In this document: positions 2,057 to 19,998 of the stretch, in pieces | Position numbering within the stretch: the first letter of the stretch is position 1 | How the letters are laid out: every line of letters begins with the position of its first letter | Assembly (NCBI GenBank): GCA_039964305.1 | Contig: JBDVXS010000100.1 | Location: 4,924 to 68,923 of the forward strand | Source of the DNA: Hyphomicrobiales bacterium | GTDB taxonomy: Bacteria; Pseudomonadota; Alphaproteobacteria; Rhizobiales; JACESI01 | DNA: 64,000 nt | Direction: 5' to 3' | The notes under the pieces: model-generated | Databases searched by the model: none | Seen by the model: the letters and a program-made list of their open reading frames with translations, nothing else | What the model was told of the DNA's origin: nothing | Program-made: the position numbers and the translations under genes

Positions 2057-3510
2057 TGACGATGGATAGCCTTTTACTATTCACCATTCTGCTGCCTTTA
2101 TTGGCTGCGGTCGGTATCCTTGTTTTCTCGCGTTATCCAAACATGCGCGAAGGCATTACTATCGTGACAGCAATCGTTCTGCTGTTTGAAGTAATCAACG
2201 TCTATGATTATTTCCAAGGTGGGCAGGTGCCAGCTGTTGGGCCATTCCAAGTTCTGCCGGGCCTCGAAATTGCCTTTAATGTTGAACCATTGGGCATGTT
2301 GTTTGCGCTGATTGCTTCGATTTTGTGGATCATTAATTCGATCTATTCAATCGGCTATATGCGCGGCAATAACGAGCCTCGCCAAACGCAGTTTTATATC
2401 TGTTTTGCCGTATCTATCTTCGGTGTCATGGGTATTGCGTTTTCTGCAAACCTCTTCACGCTGTTCTTGTTCTACGAAGTTTTGACACTCGCGACATATC
2501 CGCTGGTGACACATAAAGGCAATGACGATGCTAAGAAGGGTGGACGCCTCTACCTTTTGATCCTGCTTGGCACATCAATGCTGTTGTTACTGCCTGCAAT
2601 CATCTGGACTGGCTTCCTTGCTGGAACAATGGACTTCACCGCTGGTGGCATCTTAGACGGCAAGGCATCATCTGGCGTGCTTCTGGTTCTCATGCTGCTC
2701 TTCATGTTTGGCATAGGTAAAGCAGCACTCATGCCGTTCCATTTCTGGCTACCTGCTGCCATGGTTGCACCGACACCTGTATCAGCCCTGCTCCACGCTG
2801 TGGCTGTTGTGAAGGCGGGCGTGTTTACGGTTGTCAAAGTCATTGTCTATGTCTTCGGCATTGATTTGTTGAAGGAAACAGGGGCGGGCGATTGGCTGCT
2901 TTATGCGGCAGGGTTTACCGTCATTGCGGCCTCTCTTGTTGCGATCCGCCAAGACAACATCAAAAAGCGGCTTGCATACTCAACCGTCAGTCAACTCTCC
3001 TACGTGGTGCTTGCTGCGGCCATCTTAGCGCCGATCTCCATGATTGGTGCAGCCATGCATATTGCAGCGCACGCCGTCTCCAAGATTACCCTCTTCTTTG
3101 CTGCGGGTTCGATCTACACGGCGGCTCACAAGACAGAAGTAAGTCAGTTAAACGGTATTGGCTGGAAGATGCCAATCACCATGGCAGCCTTTGCTGTCGG
3201 TGCGCTTTCCATGATTGGCTTGCCGCCAACGGCTGGTTTCCTTGGCAAATGGTTCATGCTTTCGGGTGCCGTTTCAACGGGGCAATGGTTTGCCGTTGGC
3301 GTGATTGTGGTGTCCACCATGTTGAACGCTGGCTATTTCCTTCCAATCTTGTACCGCGCCTTCTTAATGAAGCCGGACGTTGAAGGCGACCACGGCGAAG
3401 CGCCACTTGGCATTTTAATCGCAATCTCCGCAACCGCCATTGGAACGATCTTGTTGTTCTTGTTCCCAGGCGTTGCCTTTGACCTAGCATCCAAAATGGT
3501 TGGGCTTTGA
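2053..3510 (+). CDS. MnhD/NuoL-like antiporter subunit (second paralog)
   Basis: KAALMPFHFWLPAAMVAPTPVSALLHAVAVVKAG and KRLAYSTVSQLSY motifs. Confidence 0.9.
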   Translation: MMTMDSLLLFTILLPLLAAVGILVFSRYPNMREGITIVTAIVLLFEVINVYDYFQGGQVPAVGPFQVLPGLEIAFNVEPLGMLFALIASILWIINSIYSIGYMRGNNEPRQTQFYICFAVSIFGVMGIAFSANLFTLFLFYEVLTLATYPLVTHKGNDDAKKGGRLYLLILLGTSMLLLLPAIIWTGFLAGTMDFTAGGILDGKASSGVLLVLMLLFMFGIGKAALMPFHFWLPAAMVAPTPVSALLHAVAVVKAGVFTVVKVIVYVFGIDLLKETGAGDWLLYAAGFTVIAASLVAIRQDNIKKRLAYSTVSQLSYVVLAAAILAPISMIGAAMHIAAHAVSKITLFFAAGSIYTAAHKTEVSQLNGIGWKMPITMAAFAVGALSMIGLPPTAGFLGKWFMLSGAVSTGQWFAVGVIVVSTMLNAGYFLPILYRAFLMKPDVEGDHGEAPLGILIAISATAIGTILLFLFPGVAFDLASKMVGL

Positions 3511-3769: not shown

Positions 3770-5447
3770 TACACTCCTTCCACCTGGTCTCATCCTCATT
3801 CTCATAGGTTTGCTGCTTCCGCTGCTTAAAGATACGTGGCGTAGCATTGCCTTGGTGCTTGGCCCGCTGTTGGTCTTAGTCAGTGTTTGGTCTTTGCCAG
3901 ATGGAAATGTCGTAAAGGCGAGCTATCTCGGTTACGAGCTGGTGCTTGTTCGGGCAGATGAATTATCACGCTTGTTTGCTACAGTCTTTTCGCTCATGGC
4001 AGCAGCCGGTGGTTTATACGCCATCAGTCAATCTAAAACGCGCGAGCTTTCAGCAGCCTTCGTTTATGCAGGGTCGGCCATTAGTGTGGTCTTTGCAGGT
4101 GACTTGATTACCGTCTTCATCTTCTGGGAAATCATGGCAATCGCCTCCACAATAGTGGTCTGGTCCGGTGGGGCAGGGGCAAAAGCGGCAGGGCAACGCT
4201 ATGCGGTTGTGCACTTCTTAGGTGGCGTTCTCCTTATGGCAGGCATTGCAGGAGAAGTTGCGACAACAGGCTCCATTGCCTTTGACGTGATGGAAGCAAA
4301 CTCTTGGTCACGTTGGTTGATCCTCGGTGGCTTCTTAATCAATGCAGGTGCACCGCCATTTTCTGCATGGCTTCCAGATGCCTACCCAGAAGCTTCATGG
4401 TCTGGAACAGTATTCTTGTCAGCCTTTACGACGAAGACAGCTGTCTATGTTTTGATGCGGACGTTCCCAGGCACTGAGATTTTAATTTATATCGGCCTGT
4501 ATATGGTCTTCTACGGCATCGTGTATGCGATTTTAGAAAATGATATGCGCCGCATCTTAGCCTACTCAATCATCAACCAAGTTGGCTTTATGATTGTTGG
4601 TATCGGCATCGGTAGTGAGATGTCGCTGAACGGTGCGGCGGCTCATGCCTTTGTTCATATTATCTACAAGGCACTTTTGTTGATGTCGGCTGGTGCTGTG
4701 CTTTACCAAACTGGCAAACACAAATGTACGGATTTGGGTGGCTTGTTCAGAACCATGCCAATCACGATGATTTGTGGAACGATCGGAGCGCTAGCGATTT
4801 CGGCTTTCCCGTTTACGTCAGGGTTTGTGGCCAAGTCTGTCATCTCACAAGGGGCAGCAGACGCGCACCTTGGTTTTGTTTGGTATTTGCTCGCTGCGGC
4901 TTCTGCTGGCGTGTTTCTTCATGCAGGCATTAAATTCCCGTGGTTTGTCTTCTTCCAAAAAGATTCAGGCATGAGGCCAAGTGAGCCACCACGCACCATG
5001 ATATGGTCAATGGTGCTTCTGTCAGCTGCGTGTATATTGATCGGTATATTCCCCGATGTACTCTATAGCCTATTGCCGCATGCTGTGGATTATGTGCCAT
5101 ACACGGGCGCGCATATTGTGTTCCAGCTACAACTCTTACTCTTCTCTGGGCTTGCCTTCTTTGTGCTACTGCCAATGTTAAAGAGAACTCTGACAATAAC
5201 ACTTGATTTTGATTGGTTTTACAGAAGCTTTGGTAAAGCCGTTGCCAAGGTATTTGATGCAGTAACGACTACATTGTGGGGAAGTATTGTGAGTTTCAGT
5301 AAAGGAATCGCAAAATCTGCAGTCAATTTTATCCTGAGACTACATGGACCAAGCGGTGTATTTTCTGAAACTTGGTCGACTGGTGTGATGGCGTTTTGGA
5401 CGACTGTGCTACTAGGTTTGCATTTGCTTGTATACTTTACTTGGTAG
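3759..5447 (+). CDS. Na+/H+ antiporter subunit D-like (third paralog)
   Basis: AWLPDAYPEAS, FLSAFTTKTAVY, ENDMRRILAYS, AGIKFPWFVFF motifs. Confidence 0.9.
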   Translation: MMSDTLLPPGLILILIGLLLPLLKDTWRSIALVLGPLLVLVSVWSLPDGNVVKASYLGYELVLVRADELSRLFATVFSLMAAAGGLYAISQSKTRELSAAFVYAGSAISVVFAGDLITVFIFWEIMAIASTIVVWSGGAGAKAAGQRYAVVHFLGGVLLMAGIAGEVATTGSIAFDVMEANSWSRWLILGGFLINAGAPPFSAWLPDAYPEASWSGTVFLSAFTTKTAVYVLMRTFPGTEILIYIGLYMVFYGIVYAILENDMRRILAYSIINQVGFMIVGIGIGSEMSLNGAAAHAFVHIIYKALLLMSAGAVLYQTGKHKCTDLGGLFRTMPITMICGTIGALAISAFPFTSGFVAKSVISQGAADAHLGFVWYLLAAASAGVFLHAGIKFPWFVFFQKDSGMRPSEPPRTMIWSMVLLSAACILIGIFPDVLYSLLPHAVDYVPYTGAHIVFQLQLLLFSGLAFFVLLPMLKRTLTITLDFDWFYRSFGKAVAKVFDAVTTTLWGSIVSFSKGIAKSAVNFILRLHGPSGVFSETWSTGVMAFWTTVLLGLHLLVYFTW

Positions 5448-6179: not shown

Positions 6180-6587
6180 ATGCGGCAAGATCTAAATAAT
6201 CTGAAAACGGTTGATTGCGGACCGTGCAGGCTCTTCTACCTAAAAAGTAGCTATACGTGCGATTTTATAAAATATTCGACCGCAAAAGCATTTGGCATAA
6301 AGTCGGATGACTTAGATTCAAAAACAAGAAAACAAGCAGATATTGCTTTTGCTCGGCAAATTGCGATGTATATCGCGCATGTACGCCTCGGGCTCAATTT
6401 GGGAGAAGTTGGTAAAGTATTCCAACGCGATAGAACAACTGTCGGTCATGCTTGTCGACTAATTGAAGACAGACGGGATGATGAACAAGTTGATTTTTTA
6501 ATCAACTGTTTGGAGCGAGCCGTCGAGGAATGGTCGCAAATTGCCCTCCATCACCATCCTTATTGTATGGTCGCGAGGGATGAGTAA
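6180..6587 (+). CDS. gafY: DnaA C-terminal-like HTH protein; GTA activator GafY homolog
   Basis: AFARQIAMYIAHV...FQRDRTTVGHACRLIEDRRDD; coupled to a DUF6456 gene between mucR and sufE, the position typical of gafYZ. Confidence 0.8.
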   Translation: MRQDLNNLKTVDCGPCRLFYLKSSYTCDFIKYSTAKAFGIKSDDLDSKTRKQADIAFARQIAMYIAHVRLGLNLGEVGKVFQRDRTTVGHACRLIEDRRDDEQVDFLINCLERAVEEWSQIALHHHPYCMVARDE

Positions 6588-7297
6588 TGAGCGATGTTGA
6601 TATACACTTGATAAAGGCTCTACGCTCTTTAGCTGCTCGTTCAAGAAGTAGCACGGCAAAAGGTGAGGGTTTAAACAAGTCCCGTGAAGATCGGGTAATC
6701 CTCGATAAGCTTCTCGCCCGTGCGCTGATTAAGCAGAACAAAACTGATAATTACTCCCTGACAAAAGAAGGTGTGCGTTTTTTAAAGCGCGCCCAATGCG
6801 ATGAAGGTGTTGCCTATCAACGGCAACATCAAAATGTAGTTATTGGCGAAATTGACGCCGGTGAAAAAGTTTCAATCAACCAGAATGAAAGTCCGCTCGC
6901 CCGCTTGTATCATCGACGAGGAAAATCAGGAGTGCGTCTTTTATCGAAACTCCAGTATGAAGCGGGGGAGAGTTTGCGACGTGATTTTGAGGCCTCAAAA
7001 TTTACTCCGAAGCTTGGCATGACATTAGGCCCCAAAGTGGATGGGGGTGGTTATAATGATGCTGTATCAACTGCAATGACGGGATCGCTTGCCGCAAAGA
7101 AAAGAATTGAGTGTGCTATTTCTTCAGTCGGCCCAGAGCTTGGTGCTTTGTTGCTTGATGTGTGTTGCTATCTAAAAGGCTTAGAGCTGGTGGAGCGGGA
7201 ACGACAGTGGCCTGTTCGTTCAGCAAAGGTGGTCTTGGGGGTAGCGCTCAACCAACTTGCTGTGCACTACGGTCTTACTAATCGGGCGATAGTATAG
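6587..7297 (+). CDS. gafZ: DUF6456 protein; GTA activator/antiterminator GafZ homolog
   Basis: NESPLARL...AGESLRRDFE...DVCCYLKGLELVERERQWPVRSAKVVL...LAVHYG signature; start overlaps gafY stop. Confidence 0.82.
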   Translation: MSDVDIHLIKALRSLAARSRSSTAKGEGLNKSREDRVILDKLLARALIKQNKTDNYSLTKEGVRFLKRAQCDEGVAYQRQHQNVVIGEIDAGEKVSINQNESPLARLYHRRGKSGVRLLSKLQYEAGESLRRDFEASKFTPKLGMTLGPKVDGGGYNDAVSTAMTGSLAAKKRIECAISSVGPELGALLLDVCCYLKGLELVERERQWPVRSAKVVLGVALNQLAVHYGLTNRAIV

Positions 7298-15444: not shown

Positions 15445-17610
15445 CTATAGTTGACCTGCTAAAGTCTTAATGCCGTCAGCTTCGGCTTTCTTCAAAGGCA
15501 CAAAGCCTTTTACCACTTTATCCTGTTTCTCTTCGAGCAATTGGCCGATGTTTCTCAAAACTTTGGTGGAGTTTGCTGATAGCGCTCTGATTTGATCAAT
15601 CGATTTAATCTTCACGTCATTGCCTTGGGCATCAAGTTCCACAAGTTTGATGTCAGAGCGTCCATCACTACCAAGATAAGGGATAGGGCGCTTGTCGACA
15701 CCTTGGTGGGCGAAGGTCATAATATCTTTCCATGTCATCGCTGGAAGACGTCCACCTGTTAGGCGGCGTGTTGGTGTGTAGTTGTCATTGCCGTACCAAA
15801 CAGCAGAAACATAATTACCAGTATAGCCAATAAACCAAGCATCGCGGTACGATTGTGTGGTTCCGGTTTTACCCGCAGTTTTACGATCATCCAGTTTACC
15901 ACGGCGGCCAGTTCCCCATTCAGGGACTTGCGACAAAATTTCGTTCATTGAAGCAACAGAGCTTGCTTTCAAAACGCGCTCTTTTTGTTGGTTGCCGCCA
16001 AAGTCTCTAATGAGATCACCTTTTGAATTGTAAATACGGATGGCGGCCTTCGCTCTTGGTTTGTAACCGCCATTAGCAAAAACGGAGTAGCCTGTCGTCA
16101 TATCCAAAACGGATACTTCGGATGTACCAATTGGCAAGCTTGGGTTTGCCCGCAATTTTGCGTTGACGCCCATGCTGTGTGTTGTTTCGACAATCTTCTT
16201 TGCACCCAACTGCAAACCAATTTTTACCGGAATGGTATTGATTGATTTTACCAGTGCTGTGGTGAGCGTTTGGCTACCAGAGTAACTGCGGGTGTAGTTT
16301 TTAGGAGACCAGCCTTTTACCCAGACAGGACCATCTACAATACGCGTTGAAGGGGTCATGCCTGCTTCCATCGCCGCTGAATAAACAAAGGCTTTGAAAG
16401 TAGAACCAGGAGAACGCAGTGCATCAACCGCGCGGTTAAATTGGCTTTGGCCATAATCACGGCCACCAACCATTGCCCGCACAAAGCCATCCGGTGTCAT
16501 AACAACGGTTGCGCCTTGGGTAATGTTGTATGCTTTGCCGTTTTCGACCAAGTAACGATTAATAGTCCGCTCAGCGTGCTCTTGGATTGATTGATCCAAT
16601 CCTGTCACCACCGTCAAGACACGGTCTTCTTGAATGTTCATCTTCAAGATATCTTGGTAAGCCCAATCAAGGAAATAGTCCGGTCTGTTTTCACGTTTGC
16701 GATTGACGGCAGACGCTGGGTTTTGTCGAGCGGTTAGAACTTGCCCCTCAGTCAAGAAATCAGCCTGCACCATGTTGGTCAAAACTTCATTCGCGCGTTC
16801 CCGTGCCGAAGCCAAATTAATGTGCGGGGCAAAGTTGGTTGGCGCTTTGAAAAGGCCAGCAAGCATTGCCGATTCTGCAAGGGTTAGGTCAGCATAATCT
16901 TTGTCGAAATAAAATTCAGCCGCTGCTGGAATACCAAAGGCACCACCGCCAAGATAAGCGCGGTTGAAGTAAAGTTCCAAAATCTCTTGTTTCGTTAAAT
17001 TCGCATCAAGCCATAATGCCAAGAAGGCTTCTTTAGCTTTTCGCGAAAGGGTGCGTTCGTTGCTCAAGAAAATGTTCTTCGCAACCTGCTGTGTGATGGT
17101 CGAACCACCCTCAACAACGCCGCCAGCCTTTACGTTCGTGGCAAAAGCACGAGCGATGCCGAAGATATCAACACCAAAATGAGAAAAGAAGCGCCGGTCT
17201 TCAGTCGCAAGTGTTGCTTTGACCACATGATCGGGTAGCCGTTCCAAATCAATTGGTTTGTTCTGGAAAACCCCGCGCCTTCCAACAACTTTTCCTGATC
17301 GATCAACAAAAGTGACGGAATAATCGTCTTGTTTGCGCCAATCTGTGTTGGTTGCCAAAATTGCTGGTTGAGCAAGCCCCAACATCAGCAACATGCCGAC
17401 CGCACCCCATGTGAGGGCTTCATTGGCAAGTTCTACTGGGATACGCTGCCAACCCAAAACGCGGAAACGTCGCATGAATGTGGAGTAACGCGCGTATAAA
17501 TCGCGTATCCAACCGAAACTTGAAAATAGGCCACCATCGATGGCACTATCCAATTCGAGCATTCTGCTTGTCAGCTTATTGCGTCTGTTATGGGAAAGCG
17601 GATCGTTCAA
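15445..17610 (-). CDS. Class A penicillin-binding protein (PBP1A family transglycosylase/transpeptidase)
   Basis: EDRRFFSHFGVD, GGSTITQQ, SPGSTFK (SxxK), SIN (SxN), KTG motifs. Confidence 0.95.
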   Translation of the reverse strand: MNDPLSHNRRNKLTSRMLELDSAIDGGLFSSFGWIRDLYARYSTFMRRFRVLGWQRIPVELANEALTWGAVGMLLMLGLAQPAILATNTDWRKQDDYSVTFVDRSGKVVGRRGVFQNKPIDLERLPDHVVKATLATEDRRFFSHFGVDIFGIARAFATNVKAGGVVEGGSTITQQVAKNIFLSNERTLSRKAKEAFLALWLDANLTKQEILELYFNRAYLGGGAFGIPAAAEFYFDKDYADLTLAESAMLAGLFKAPTNFAPHINLASARERANEVLTNMVQADFLTEGQVLTARQNPASAVNRKRENRPDYFLDWAYQDILKMNIQEDRVLTVVTGLDQSIQEHAERTINRYLVENGKAYNITQGATVVMTPDGFVRAMVGGRDYGQSQFNRAVDALRSPGSTFKAFVYSAAMEAGMTPSTRIVDGPVWVKGWSPKNYTRSYSGSQTLTTALVKSINTIPVKIGLQLGAKKIVETTHSMGVNAKLRANPSLPIGTSEVSVLDMTTGYSVFANGGYKPRAKAAIRIYNSKGDLIRDFGGNQQKERVLKASSVASMNEILSQVPEWGTGRRGKLDDRKTAGKTGTTQSYRDAWFIGYTGNYVSAVWYGNDNYTPTRRLTGGRLPAMTWKDIMTFAHQGVDKRPIPYLGSDGRSDIKLVELDAQGNDVKIKSIDQIRALSANSTKVLRNIGQLLEEKQDKVVKGFVPLKKAEADGIKTLAGQL

Positions 17611-17624
17611 AGGGTTGTTTCCAG

Positions 17625-17650
17625 TAAATAAAGTCTTAACAATTTCTAAA
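17625..17650. promoter_or_regulatory. CtrA-like boxes upstream of the PBP1A gene
   Basis: TAAA-N7-TTAAC overlapping TTAA-N7-TAAA. Confidence 0.35.
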
Positions 17651-17707
17651 TAAGCGTTATTGCTGAAATATGCCAGCCGCCTTCGTATTAAATATGAGAT
17701 TTAGTTA

Positions 17708-18190
17708 ATGGAAAACGCACCTTTTTGGAAGACCACCCCCTTAGAAAAACTATCAAATGAGCAATGGGAATCCCTTTGTGACGGTTGTGGTCGGTGCTGT
17801 TTGAACAAACTTGAAGATGAAGATACGGGCGAAATTGCTTGGACAAACATTGCTTGTTCACTTCTTGATGATGAAACTTGCAAATGTGGTGATTATCCAA
17901 ATCGTTCGACTTTAGTCCCTGATTGTATTCAGTTAACAGCTAAAAACGTGAGAGATTTGAGTTGGTTACCTGCAACGTGCGGCTATCGTCTAGTGCGTGA
18001 TGGCGAGGATTTATACTGGTGGCATCCTCTGGTTTCTGGTGATCCTGATACGGTTCACATGGCGGGCATCGCAGTTAGAGGCATGACTATTAGCGAAGAA
18101 CATGTTGAGGTTGAGGACTACGAAAACTATCTGGTTTCTTGGCCTGACGAGGATCCGTATAAAGATGTGGATTCAGAAATAGGAAAATAA
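17708..18190 (+). CDS. YcgN/UPF0260 family cysteine cluster protein
   Basis: [36 protein letters not shown]. Confidence 0.93.
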
Positions 18191-18222
18191 TCCTTGACAG
18201 CGTACGATGGTTCAGCTATAAA
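18182..18222 (+). promoter_or_regulatory. Sigma70 promoter of the former GTA cluster with an adjacent inverted-repeat operator
   Basis: TTGACA (18194-18199), 17 bp spacer, TATAAA (18217-18222); GGAA-N4-ATCC at 18182-18193 abuts the -35. Confidence 0.7.
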
Positions 18223-18373
18223 CCGTATCGTCGCAGAAGTGTGACATTCCTTTGAAAACTTGATCCTTTATCCCCCTTAGCCGTGGGACGTTTTTGCATG
18301 CTTTGGTTTGCGTCGGCGTCTTGCAACGCGTGGAGGGATGTTTGGCGTCGCTTTTGAAAGCTGGTTCGAACGA

Positions 18374-18425
18374 ATGCCCGACTGGTTAAAAATCCGCGAG
18401 GCTTATTTACATTTGGCGGTGCCAG
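18374..18425 (+). pseudogene. N-terminal stub of a small-terminase-like first GTA gene
   Basis: MPDWLKIREAYL resembles the PDW..I..AY N-terminus of terminase small subunits; recognisable similarity ends after about 17 codons. Confidence 0.45.
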
Positions 18426-18450
18426 CTTGCGGTCGTTTAAAAACTAATTT

Positions 18451-18564
18451 GTGGATTTCACACTCAAAATCGTGCCGGATAATGCTTCGCTTCAGCTTGT
18501 TGGTACAGTTGGCGGTTTTCTTGCTCTTTACGGTCGCTTGTCAGCTCAAAAAACAATCTCATGA
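18451..18564 (+). pseudogene. C-terminal remnant of a phage/GTA holin
   Basis: Frame reads ...SLQLVGTVGGFLALYGRLSAQKTIS*, matching the LQ...G..A.YGR..A...I holin tail; in-frame TAA at 18445; stop overlaps the spanin ATG. Confidence 0.6.
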
Positions 18565-18806
18565 TCGCCACTGCACTTGGTGTTTTATCGGCTTTGATGA
18601 AGCTCGTAGAGTTGCTTGTTCAAAGCCGTTTCAAGGTTCAAAAAGATCGACAAGACTATGAAACCATCCTTATGCTTAGACAATACCGTGAGCGGCTTGA
18701 AAAGGCTTTGCAAGCCCGCAAAGGCGCCTCTAAAAGCCATGCTGATGTTCTCGATGATGGGCATGATGGTGACAGCTTGCCAGACGACGGGTTTCGTCGC
18801 GACTGA
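18561..18806 (+). CDS. Putative inner-membrane spanin (Rz-like)
   Basis: N-terminal hydrophobic helix, charged helical body and DDGFRRD C-terminus; overlapped by a +1-frame lipoprotein gene. Confidence 0.65.
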   Translation: MIATALGVLSALMKLVELLVQSRFKVQKDRQDYETILMLRQYRERLEKALQARKGASKSHADVLDDGHDGDSLPDDGFRRD

Positions 18807-18933
18807 CATTTCCTGTGACGCTTTTCGTCCAATCAGCTGGTCGAAAAGTGATACCTTAGAAACAACCCTACAAATTCGTGAACACAATGCAGCTTGGCGT
18901 TCGCTCTGTGACGCGTTAGGCAGTAAAAAGTGA
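18697..18933 (+). CDS. Putative outer-membrane lipoprotein spanin (Rz1-like)
   Basis: Likely TTG start, basic n-region, lipobox VTAC (Cys at 18778), mature C..FRPISWSKSDT.ET..QIREHNAAW..LC; +1 frame overlap with 18561-18806. Confidence 0.7.
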   Translation: MKRLCKPAKAPLKAMLMFSMMGMMVTACQTTGFVATDISCDAFRPISWSKSDTLETTLQIREHNAAWRSLCDALGSKK

Positions 18934-18954
18934 GTGGGATGCAGTCGTAATTCC

Positions 18955-18971
18955 ATTCAGACTTTATTCAG
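18955..18971 (+). promoter_or_regulatory. OmpR/PhoP-type direct repeat upstream of feuNPQ
   Basis: ATTCAG-N5-ATTCAG with 11-bp period. Confidence 0.5.
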
Positions 18972-18983
18972 CCGTATTCTGGC

Positions 18984-19289
18984 ATGATCGGATTTATGAA
19001 AAATATTATTGTCCATTGCGCAGTGTTTGCGATCTTTGCTGCTCTCTTTGTTTTTGAGAGCACAGGGTCGTCTCATGCGCAATCGTGCCTAAACCCCGCT
19101 GAACAACGCAAAGCTGTGTCATCTGGTGCCGTAAGGCCGTTTGGTGCGATTGCCTCCCAAGTGCGGGGTGAACTTGTGAATGCGCGTCTTTGTAAAAGTG
19201 GTGGCAGGCTTGTCTATGTTGTCACTGTGTTACGTGGTAGTAAGCGTGTGAATGTGCGGTTTGATGCCCGAAATGGTCAGCGCCTTTAA
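18984..19289 (+). CDS. PepSY-like periplasmic protein (FeuN-like)
   Basis: Signal peptide ending AHA-like (SHA-Q), CL...RKAV.SG and ARLC...LVYVVTVL...FDARNG; upstream of feuPQ; start may be 18996. Confidence 0.75.
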   Translation: MIGFMKNIIVHCAVFAIFAALFVFESTGSSHAQSCLNPAEQRKAVSSGAVRPFGAIASQVRGELVNARLCKSGGRLVYVVTVLRGSKRVNVRFDARNGQRL

Positions 19290-19329
19290 CGCACAGTTAT
19301 TTGGGATTTAGGGTAGGTAAGTTCGACTT

Positions 19330-19998
19330 ATGAGAATTTTAGTCGTTGAAGATGATACAGATTTAAACCGACAATTGCGTGAAGCGCTCACGGATGCTGG
19401 CTATGCCGTCGATACGGCTTTCGATGGTGAAGAAGGCCATTTCCTTGGCGATACTGAACCTTATGATGCTATAGTCCTTGATATCGGCCTGCCAAATAAA
19501 GATGGCATTAGCGTTCTTGAAGAATGGCGGCGCAATGATCGCAATATGCCAGTTCTCGTTCTAACGGCGCGTGATCGCTGGAGCGATAAAGTGCAAGGCA
19601 TTGATGCGGGCGCTGATGATTATGTCGCGAAGCCATTTCATATGGAAGAAGTTCTCGCGCGGCTCAGAGCTTTGACCCGCCGTGCAAGTGGTCATGCCTC
19701 GAACGAATTTGTATGTGGGCCGGTTCGACTTGATGCGAAAACAAGTCGTGTTACCAGTGGCAACGATGTCATCAAATTAACGTCTCACGAATTCCGCGTT
19801 TTGAAATACCTCATGCATCACCCTGATCGCATCGTTTCGCGCACAGAACTTACAGAGCACTTATACGATCAAGATTTTGATCGTGATTCAAACACGATTG
19901 AAGTGTTCGTCGGCCGTCTCCGCAAAAAGTTGGGCGTCAATATCATCGAGACTGTTCGAGGTATGGGGTATCGACTGAGCGAGCCTGATGACGCTTAA
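19330..19998 (+). CDS. feuP: OmpR/PhoP family response regulator FeuP
   Basis: DGEEGHFLGDTEPYDA, WSDKVQGIDAGADDY, HLYDQDFDRDSNTIEVF. Confidence 0.85.
   Translation: MRILVVEDDTDLNRQLREALTDAGYAVDTAFDGEEGHFLGDTEPYDAIVLDIGLPNKDGISVLEEWRRNDRNMPVLVLTARDRWSDKVQGIDAGADDYVAKPFHMEEVLARLRALTRRASGHASNEFVCGPVRLDAKTSRVTSGNDVIKLTSHEFRVLKYLMHHPDRIVSRTELTEHLYDQDFDRDSNTIEVFVGRLRKKLGVNIIETVRGMGYRLSEPDDA

Follow-up and report, generated by a model that had tools for sequence, protein, structure and literature searches.

Gene transfer agents (GTAs) kill the cells that release them, and theory expects non-producing 'cheaters'. Among the closest described systems to the one treated here is RcGTA of Rhodobacter capsulatus, with the genes g1-g15 (rcc01682-rcc01698). 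The available text of Shakya et al. 2017 (PMC5721377) reports that large RcGTA-like clusters within one order share conserved flanking genes, considers small clusters as possible decaying remnants and describes the detection of putative pseudogenes; that of Kogay et al. 2024 (PMC10883770) describes multiple lineages in which clusters are pseudogenised or entirely lost, the former being perhaps recent cheaters. Here we report on a 64,000-nt stretch of DNA from a Hyphomicrobiales bacterium (positions 4,924 to 68,923 of the forward strand of contig JBDVXS010000100.1, assembly GCA_039964305.1), which we call the window and whose positions are used throughout. Its segment 18374-18564 is very probably the scar of a lost RcGTA-type head-tail cluster of approximately 14.75 kb, lying between ycgN-like and feuNPQ-like genes.

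In gene order and families, the cluster of relatives at this site corresponds to RcGTA, from TerS through an HK97-type capsid and a tape measure to g15, whereas the window retains only 11 codons of g1. A second difference concerns lysis: the endolysin-holin locus of R. capsulatus, rcc00555-rcc00556, is described as separate (PMC5026251), whereas g15 in this order is directly followed by a holin, alone or together with spanins. GTA loss and decay have already been published, and the locus is a well-resolved further instance of a known process; comparable cases may exist in the supplementary tables of the published work. Compared with published GTA loss, it adds a case with both breakpoints known to the base, with three nested deletions in one genus, that is, loss recurring with different endpoints in sister species, and with polymorphism among strains approximately 98% identical. 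Worth following are the different nested deletions, the polymorphism between closely related strains, and the end of a mobile element found at a sister strain's junction. Standard annotation would give two or three hypothetical small open reading frames (ORFs) here. The site comprises the following features.

17708-18190, plus strand: ycgN-like gene, 160 aa, stop TAA at 18188-18190; Pfam PF03692 (CxxCxxCC), E 1.4e-12; conserved left flank of the GTA site
18191-18373, plus strand: 183-nt retained intergenic region upstream of g1, read from the sequence
18374-18406, plus strand: stub of g1 (small terminase), codons 1-11, MPDWLKIREAY, from the alignment with g1 of G003 and G001
18407-18487, no strand: 81-bp filler between the breakpoints, containing TAA at 18445-18447; without a match in the searches given below
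18488-18564, plus strand: holin stub, the last 24 codons and stop of a 68-codon gene, with the first transmembrane segment gone
18561-18806, plus strand: i-spanin-like gene, 81 aa, intact; hydrophobic N-terminus, conserved C-terminal DDGFRRD
18658-18933, plus strand: o-spanin lipoprotein gene, intact, overlapping the i-spanin-like gene in the +1 frame; phrog_1275 'Rz-like spanin', E 1.5e-13
18984-19289, plus strand: feuN-like gene for a small exported protein, right flank; weak PepSY match only, E 0.064
19330-19998, plus strand: feuP-like gene for an OmpR-family response regulator, right flank; Pfam PF00072 and PF00486
19988-21343, plus strand: feuQ-like gene for a sensor histidine kinase, right flank; Pfam HATPase_c and HAMP

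This succession after ycgN (stub, in-frame stop, holin stub, spanin-like pair, feuNPQ), given in a preliminary description of the locus, is visible both in the sequence and in the list of ORFs. The left breakpoint was placed by a DNA search of 41 genomes. Identity with G003, a genome of the same genus (G001-G005; the window genome is G000), is unbroken from ycgN to 18406 (83% over 699 nt; 87.7% over the last 57 nt, E 1.9e-10), and the match resumes only from 18825 onward. Homology to g1 ends at codon 11 and codon 12 (L) after the ATG at 18374 is filler, which puts the breakpoint at 18406/18407. The g1 genes of relatives belong to the small terminases (the G003 copy matches phrog_1206 with E 1.3e-10).

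On the right side, the stub protein LQLVGTVGGFLALYGRLSAQKTIS followed by a stop (18490-18564) matches the holin of G004 at 83% over 24 aa (E 2.7e-6, tblastn against the whole genome), and G004 DNA matches the window from 18490 onward at 77%. A profile of six holins matches the stub with E 4e-6, and of its 68 positions only 42-67 take part. In an alignment with all four same-genus holins, the stub corresponds to their C-terminus and retains every residue that is invariant there; a full-length holin has both membrane segments, and here the first 44 residues, and with them the first hydrophobic segment, are missing. The two-segment protein of 68 aa in relatives was identified as a holin (its G001 copy matches phrog_34682 with E 1.1e-12). 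The right breakpoint is 18487/18488, at holin codon 44/45, and the positions equivalent to the two breakpoints lie 14,755 nt apart in G002. The matches of the relatives' homologues to phrog_1206 and phrog_34682, together with the alignments, bear out the earlier assignment of the two stubs to the first GTA gene and the holin, and the junction that had been put at around 18425-18480 falls within the true filler.

Contigs from public runs, 97-99% identical to the window, fix the same breakpoints. X1 and X2 are runs from two other studies, used only where their contigs cover the window. An X1 contig matches 18289-18406 with 3 differences and continues for 399 nt, the first 30 letters of this continuation matching G003 g1 at 25/30 positions. 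Contigs of both X1 and X2 start matching at 18488, preceded by holin-coding letters. Altogether, X1 shows 25 differences in 1,388 letters and is native at both breakpoints, and X2 shows 4 differences in 317 letters and is native at the right one. Contigs of X1 and of a further run, X16, match up to 18406 and then diverge. As contigs approximately 98% identical are native across the breakpoints, the scar is not fixed in the species-level population. The loss was probably recent, because strains this close retain g1 and holin sequence at the breakpoints. With close environmental strains native across the breakpoints, the frequency of producers and non-producers could be measured in metagenomes by a simple junction assay.

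What occupies the site in relatives is best seen in G002, where ycgN is followed by 17 ORFs, a 68-aa two-segment holin, an 80-aa protein, an overlapping lipoprotein and the feuN-, feuP- and feuQ-like genes. Canonical Pfam families are found in 14 of the 17 cluster ORFs, in RcGTA order: TerL, portal, S78 protease, capsid, connector, head completion, tail completion, tube, two chaperones, DUF2460, hub, NlpC/P60 and g15. The G002 g1, a 108-aa ORF and a tape-measure-sized ORF have no Pfam match. The g15 of relatives contains the domains GTA_TIM, Phage-tail_3 and Rcc01698_C, and their overlapping lipoprotein is an o-spanin (phrog_1275, E 4e-15). G005 has the same arrangement across two contigs, with capsid and g15 found among the genes checked. 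A second g15-like gene of G005 lies on another contig (C11:64584-69023) and was matched in two pieces, with one TGA in the first.

At the order level, ycgN is followed within a few hundred bases by g1-g15 in three of five loci (G010, G023 and G031, from other families), and in G010 and G023 a response regulator and a kinase follow within the fetched 20 kb. The cluster does not come directly after ycgN in G025, with a GTA_TIM match approximately 28 kb downstream on the same contig, or in G030, with a holin match approximately 37 kb downstream. A ycgN-like gene precedes g1 in G001, G002, G003, G010, G023 and G031. The preliminary description had placed an RcGTA-like cluster between ycgN and feuP in many Hyphomicrobiales, which agrees with G002 and G005 within the genus and with three of the five order-level loci. 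Of 201 genomes sampled from the order, 149 have GTA_TIM (135 of the 176 of high quality), so that absence is also common.

In the window genome (98.55% complete, 163 contigs), a tblastn search of every contig with 31 proteins from G010, G001 and G004 returned only ycgN, the stubs, the spanins, feuN/P and one partial match, which is part of the post-g15 enzyme of G010 and lies on contig C91. The 17 cluster proteins of G002 had no match in the genome at E <= 1e-2, and a search for PF13547 returned 0 matches. The head-tail structural genes by which a functional cluster carrier is recognised (TerL, portal, capsid, tail, g15) were not found in the genome. To judge by the assembly, the head-tail cluster is gone rather than moved, and nothing points to a copy on unassembled DNA.

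The lost span would comprise the rest of g1, TerL, portal, protease, capsid, connectors, tail, g15 and the first 44 holin codons. Terminase, capsid and tail genes had been named correctly among those removed; the endolysin named with them is absent between g15 and the holin in the genus (G001, G002, G004, G005), and the g14 NlpC/P60 peptidase was lost along with the cluster. A cell in this state would be unable to make or release GTA particles, and the leftover pieces would be functionless by themselves. The g1 start codon would now open a chimeric frame of 95 codons (18374-18661), and the spanin genes would have lost their translational coupling to a full holin.

How the cluster was lost is less clear than that it was lost. 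The preliminary description had proposed one large deletion; this is not shown, and the unmatched 81-bp filler together with an IS3-type end in a sister strain argues against it. The filler has a TAA (18445-18447) in frame with a GTG at 18451, ahead of the holin stub. Searched against the whole genome and all fetched loci (blastn-short, word size 7), it gave only chance words of 11-14 nt, and exact scans of a metagenome contig collection with a filler 27-mer and a g1-stub 27-mer found no match. The sister strain is that of run X16. Its left contig continues past 18406 with 8 letters that agree with the g1 continuation of X1, followed by a 22-mer resembling the end of an IS3-family element. This 22-mer matches such an end at C143:53635-53656 of the genome with 3 mismatches (approximately 0.02 chance matches estimated), beside a transposase with HTH_Tnp_1, HTH_21 and rve domains. 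In the right contig of X16, filler positions 18413-18487 are joined to other DNA, without the left joint, and the 30 letters before the filler match C87:6496-6525 with 1 mismatch, 165 nt from a transposase fragment. The left loose end of X16, including two flank letters, had no match at <= 3 mismatches in five genomes; a 17-mer search allowing <= 4 substitutions was discarded as too permissive to be informative. As read from its contigs, the left breakpoint of the X16 strain coincides exactly with a mobile-element end or a rearrangement.

At this point the window has 6 letters and X16 has 8 others; excising an insert from the X16 state would not yield the window sequence, and the two states are therefore not linked by one simple insertion. 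The contig ends, of 30 letters, are too short to give the order of events. The loss would have taken either a minimum of two events or a single deletion accompanied by filler DNA. A route mediated by insertion sequences has somewhat less than an even chance in our estimate. We consider it unlikely that a single clean deletion, that is, one event of illegitimate recombination joining g1 codon 11 to the holin with 81 bp captured as filler, accounts for the locus. Such an event would agree with the presence of only one junction region and with the G003 and G001 deletions, each of which resembles one clean joint. End joining is also known to leave filler where a deletion is sealed, and the filler seen here may be of that kind. 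However, 81 bp is long for filler and has no local match, and the X16 strain, with filler lacking the left joint and with a left flank of 8 extra g1 letters followed by an insertion-sequence end, points to intermediate states.

It is far less probable, indeed highly improbable, that the scar is an artefact of assembly or binning, in which a cluster actually present was skipped or collapsed, or the contig is chimeric. In its favour, the genome is an assembly of 163 contigs, and related samples also contain close strains that have g1 and holin sequence. Against this, on its 71,268-nt contig the scar is over 23 kb away from both ends, its two flanks are the neighbours of the cluster in relatives, we found no repeat able to cause an assembly collapse there, and no other contig carries a fragment of a head-tail gene. 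In a separate assembly of run X15, a contig of 32,599 nt covers 17700-19400 with 0 differences, and a contig of X16, from another sample of the same study, covers 18413-19184 with 6 differences and confirms the joint between the filler and the holin stub. An artefactual junction would have undone the preliminary description; the X15 contig is the same over the junction and X16 supports the right joint, with the left joint seen in X15 only. Because X15 may be the source sample of the genome, its contig checks the assembler and not the sample. A low-depth (2.9) contig of 221 nt in X15 covers 18222-18275 and then diverges to G003-like intergenic sequence, so that a second related lineage seems to be present in the same sample.

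That the lineage never had the cluster, and that relatives gained it by insertion at this site, is next to impossible: the absence of the genes alone speaks for it, against 11 g1 codons and 24 holin codons kept in the right order and orientation, and a site occupied by the cluster in several families of an order with GTA_TIM in 149 of 201 genomes.

Several points nevertheless weigh against the reading of 18374-18564 as the scar of a recently lost cluster. All relatives are metagenome-assembled genomes, and their structures too rest on assemblies. The left joint 18406/18407 has no independent confirmation if X15 is the genome's own source sample, as it perhaps is. The filler is without a match in the genome, in the fetched loci and in the metagenome contig collection. 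In G004, a close relative, the assembly breaks on either side of the locus (at the ends of C10 and C128): the contig with ycgN stops 43 nt past the stop codon, the other one begins within g15, and a search of this 91%-complete assembly found neither capsid nor GTA_TIM. Recency is drawn from short contig ends, and the X1 and X2 strains may or may not hold the whole cluster. Finally, the ratios of nonsynonymous to synonymous substitution rates (dN/dS) relative to G004 (i-spanin 0.23, o-spanin 0.35, feuN 0.17, feuP 0.02) come, for the spanins, from short and overlapping sequences; at 0.23-0.35 they fit a recent loss without proving it, cannot separate it from continuing selection and do not decide whether selection went on after the loss.

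Loss of the cluster was found three times in the genus, each time with a different scar.

G000 (window genome): from g1 codon 11 to holin codon 45
G003: from TerL residue 360 to o-spanin residue 77; holin, i-spanin and part of the o-spanin also lost
G001: from portal residue 289 to g15 residue 1178; holin and spanins intact

Three nested deletions in six genomes, a variant bearing an insertion sequence, and the retention of an activator pair and of ComEC are the basis for a broader proposal, that GTA producers and non-producers coexist in one marine Hyphomicrobiales species and that the genus loses the cluster repeatedly and recently. We hold this proposal tentatively and regard it as possible but doubtful. 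If true, it would be a natural 'cheater' polymorphism as predicted for GTAs, with breakpoints at base level. The contig breaks on both sides of the GTA site in G004 form the pattern expected from mixed strains with different states of the locus.

The activator pair lies upstream in the window.

6180-6587, plus strand: gafY-like gene, 135 aa, with a DnaA-type helix-turn-helix, intact; PF08299 Bac_DnaA_C, E 7.4e-19
6587-7297, plus strand: gafZ-like gene, 236 aa, DUF6456, intact; PF20057, E 1.3e-38

The stop of the gafY-like gene overlaps the start of the gafZ-like gene, so that a DnaA-like DNA-binding domain and DUF6456, the domains that define GafA and GafYZ, occur in two adjacent and translationally coupled genes. 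We therefore call them a putative GTA activator in its first and second halves. The split into two genes presumably resembles that of GafY and GafZ of Caulobacter. Unlike GafA of R. capsulatus and GafYZ of Caulobacter, the pair in the window survives without its presumed main target. GafA is described, in the available text of PMC9638019, as having a DnaA-like N-terminal domain, with homologues annotated as DUF6456 and occurring in Hyphomicrobiales. A DUF6456 gene is located approximately 10-11 kb upstream of the locus regardless of its GTA state and was present in all five genus genomes searched; G001, G003 and G005 have it at the same distance, and in G002 it is on a different contig from the locus. 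ComEC is intact in the genome. The dprA gene (C67, approximately 2752-3367) reads in two frames, with the shift within a run of eight G; this may be a true frameshift in a DNA-uptake gene or a homopolymer sequencing error.

Next to the scar, the spanin genes are complete. The i-spanin-like ORF overlaps the stop of the holin stub as ATGA, and its product shares 78% aa identity with that of G004, with all invariant columns retained. It has no family match in Pfam or PHROG; we call it a putative i-spanin from its position, hydrophobic N-terminus and conservation. The start of the o-spanin gene may be TTG 18616, ATG 18658 or ATG 18739. The protein has the lipobox VTAC, with the Cys at codon 55 counting from 18616, and the alignment shows that this Cys and all invariant residues are retained. 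A lipoprotein signal with lipobox and similarity to phrog_1275 are what is expected of the o-spanin of a two-component pair. As in the overlapped two-component spanins of phages, presumably in the manner of LysB/LysC of P2, the o-spanin gene begins within the i-spanin-like gene and extends past its end; the differences are that the i-spanin-like protein is only 81 aa long and lacks a family match, and that the pair is orphaned, with no intact holin adjoining.

Lysis genes at the 3' end of the cluster are not restricted to this genus. The holin profile matches 56 of the 201 genomes of the order, and its 60 listed matches were compared by hand with the coordinates of GTA_TIM matches.

41 matches (in 41 different genomes): 2-8.5 kb downstream of GTA_TIM, on the same contig and strand
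7 matches: not placeable, as 18 GTA_TIM matches went unlisted
5 matches: on another contig than GTA_TIM
4 matches: elsewhere in the genome
2 matches: beside a g15 remnant (G001, G004)
1 match: the stub in the window

The order has a phage-type holin at the 3' end of the GTA cluster, followed in this genus by an overlapped spanin pair. In many genomes of the order, the holin-like segment is the C-terminus of a frame of 300-500 aa. The gene after g15 in G010 (L028:15783-17099) encodes 438 aa with CHAP, GH108, PG_binding_3 and a C-terminal holin-like segment, an apparent endolysin-holin fusion. In G023 (L029:15795-17222) and G031 (L032:17206-18813), a DUF2793 protein of 475-535 aa follows g15, and the G023 gene precedes a holin. 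A search with the o-spanin alignment for related loci returned five, all metagenome-assembled and none from a named cultured organism, and added one Ancalomicrobiaceae locus with holin and o-spanin. The available text of PMC13236601 describes Caulobacter as being without canonical holin-endolysin genes. The holin-spanin arrangement is a candidate release mechanism that differs both from LypABC of Caulobacter and from the lysis genes at a locus of their own in Rhodobacter. In the accessible parts of the literature on GTAs with holin or spanin, or in Rhizobiales/Hyphomicrobiales, we found no description of the arrangement g15-holin-spanin, which is no proof that there is none.

Around the scar, a feuN-like ORF occupies the same position in G001-G005; the putative name feuN is one that we take from synteny. 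An ORF at 18308-18661 (117 aa) was rejected as a gene, since it crosses the stub and the filler in an unconserved frame and has only a weak VPR match (E 0.0077, short of the cut-off). An antisense ORF at 18585-18956 (123 aa) has no family match in Pfam or PHROG, and an Rfam scan of 17600-19400 at E <= 1 found no RNA family.

The region between ycgN and the g1 stub contains a promoter-like site (TTGACA at 18194-18199, a 17-nt spacer, TATAAA at 18217-18222). The 'consensus promoter' first described there is present and, with 11 of 12 consensus positions, only nearly consensus. Our promoter scan, which demands T as the last base of the second hexamer, did not list it, as that base here is A; its output consisted of two other sites and three terminator-like hairpins, at the level of shuffled controls. 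A small hairpin is located at 18230-18245. The block 18183-18242, right after the ycgN stop, is conserved in G003, G004, G001 and G002, and a palindrome in the block 18183-18245 shows a compensatory change (CAGCGT..ACGCTG in G002, CACCGT..ACGGTG in G001). It may act as a terminator hairpin or, overlapping the promoter-like hexamers, as a binding site for a dimer.

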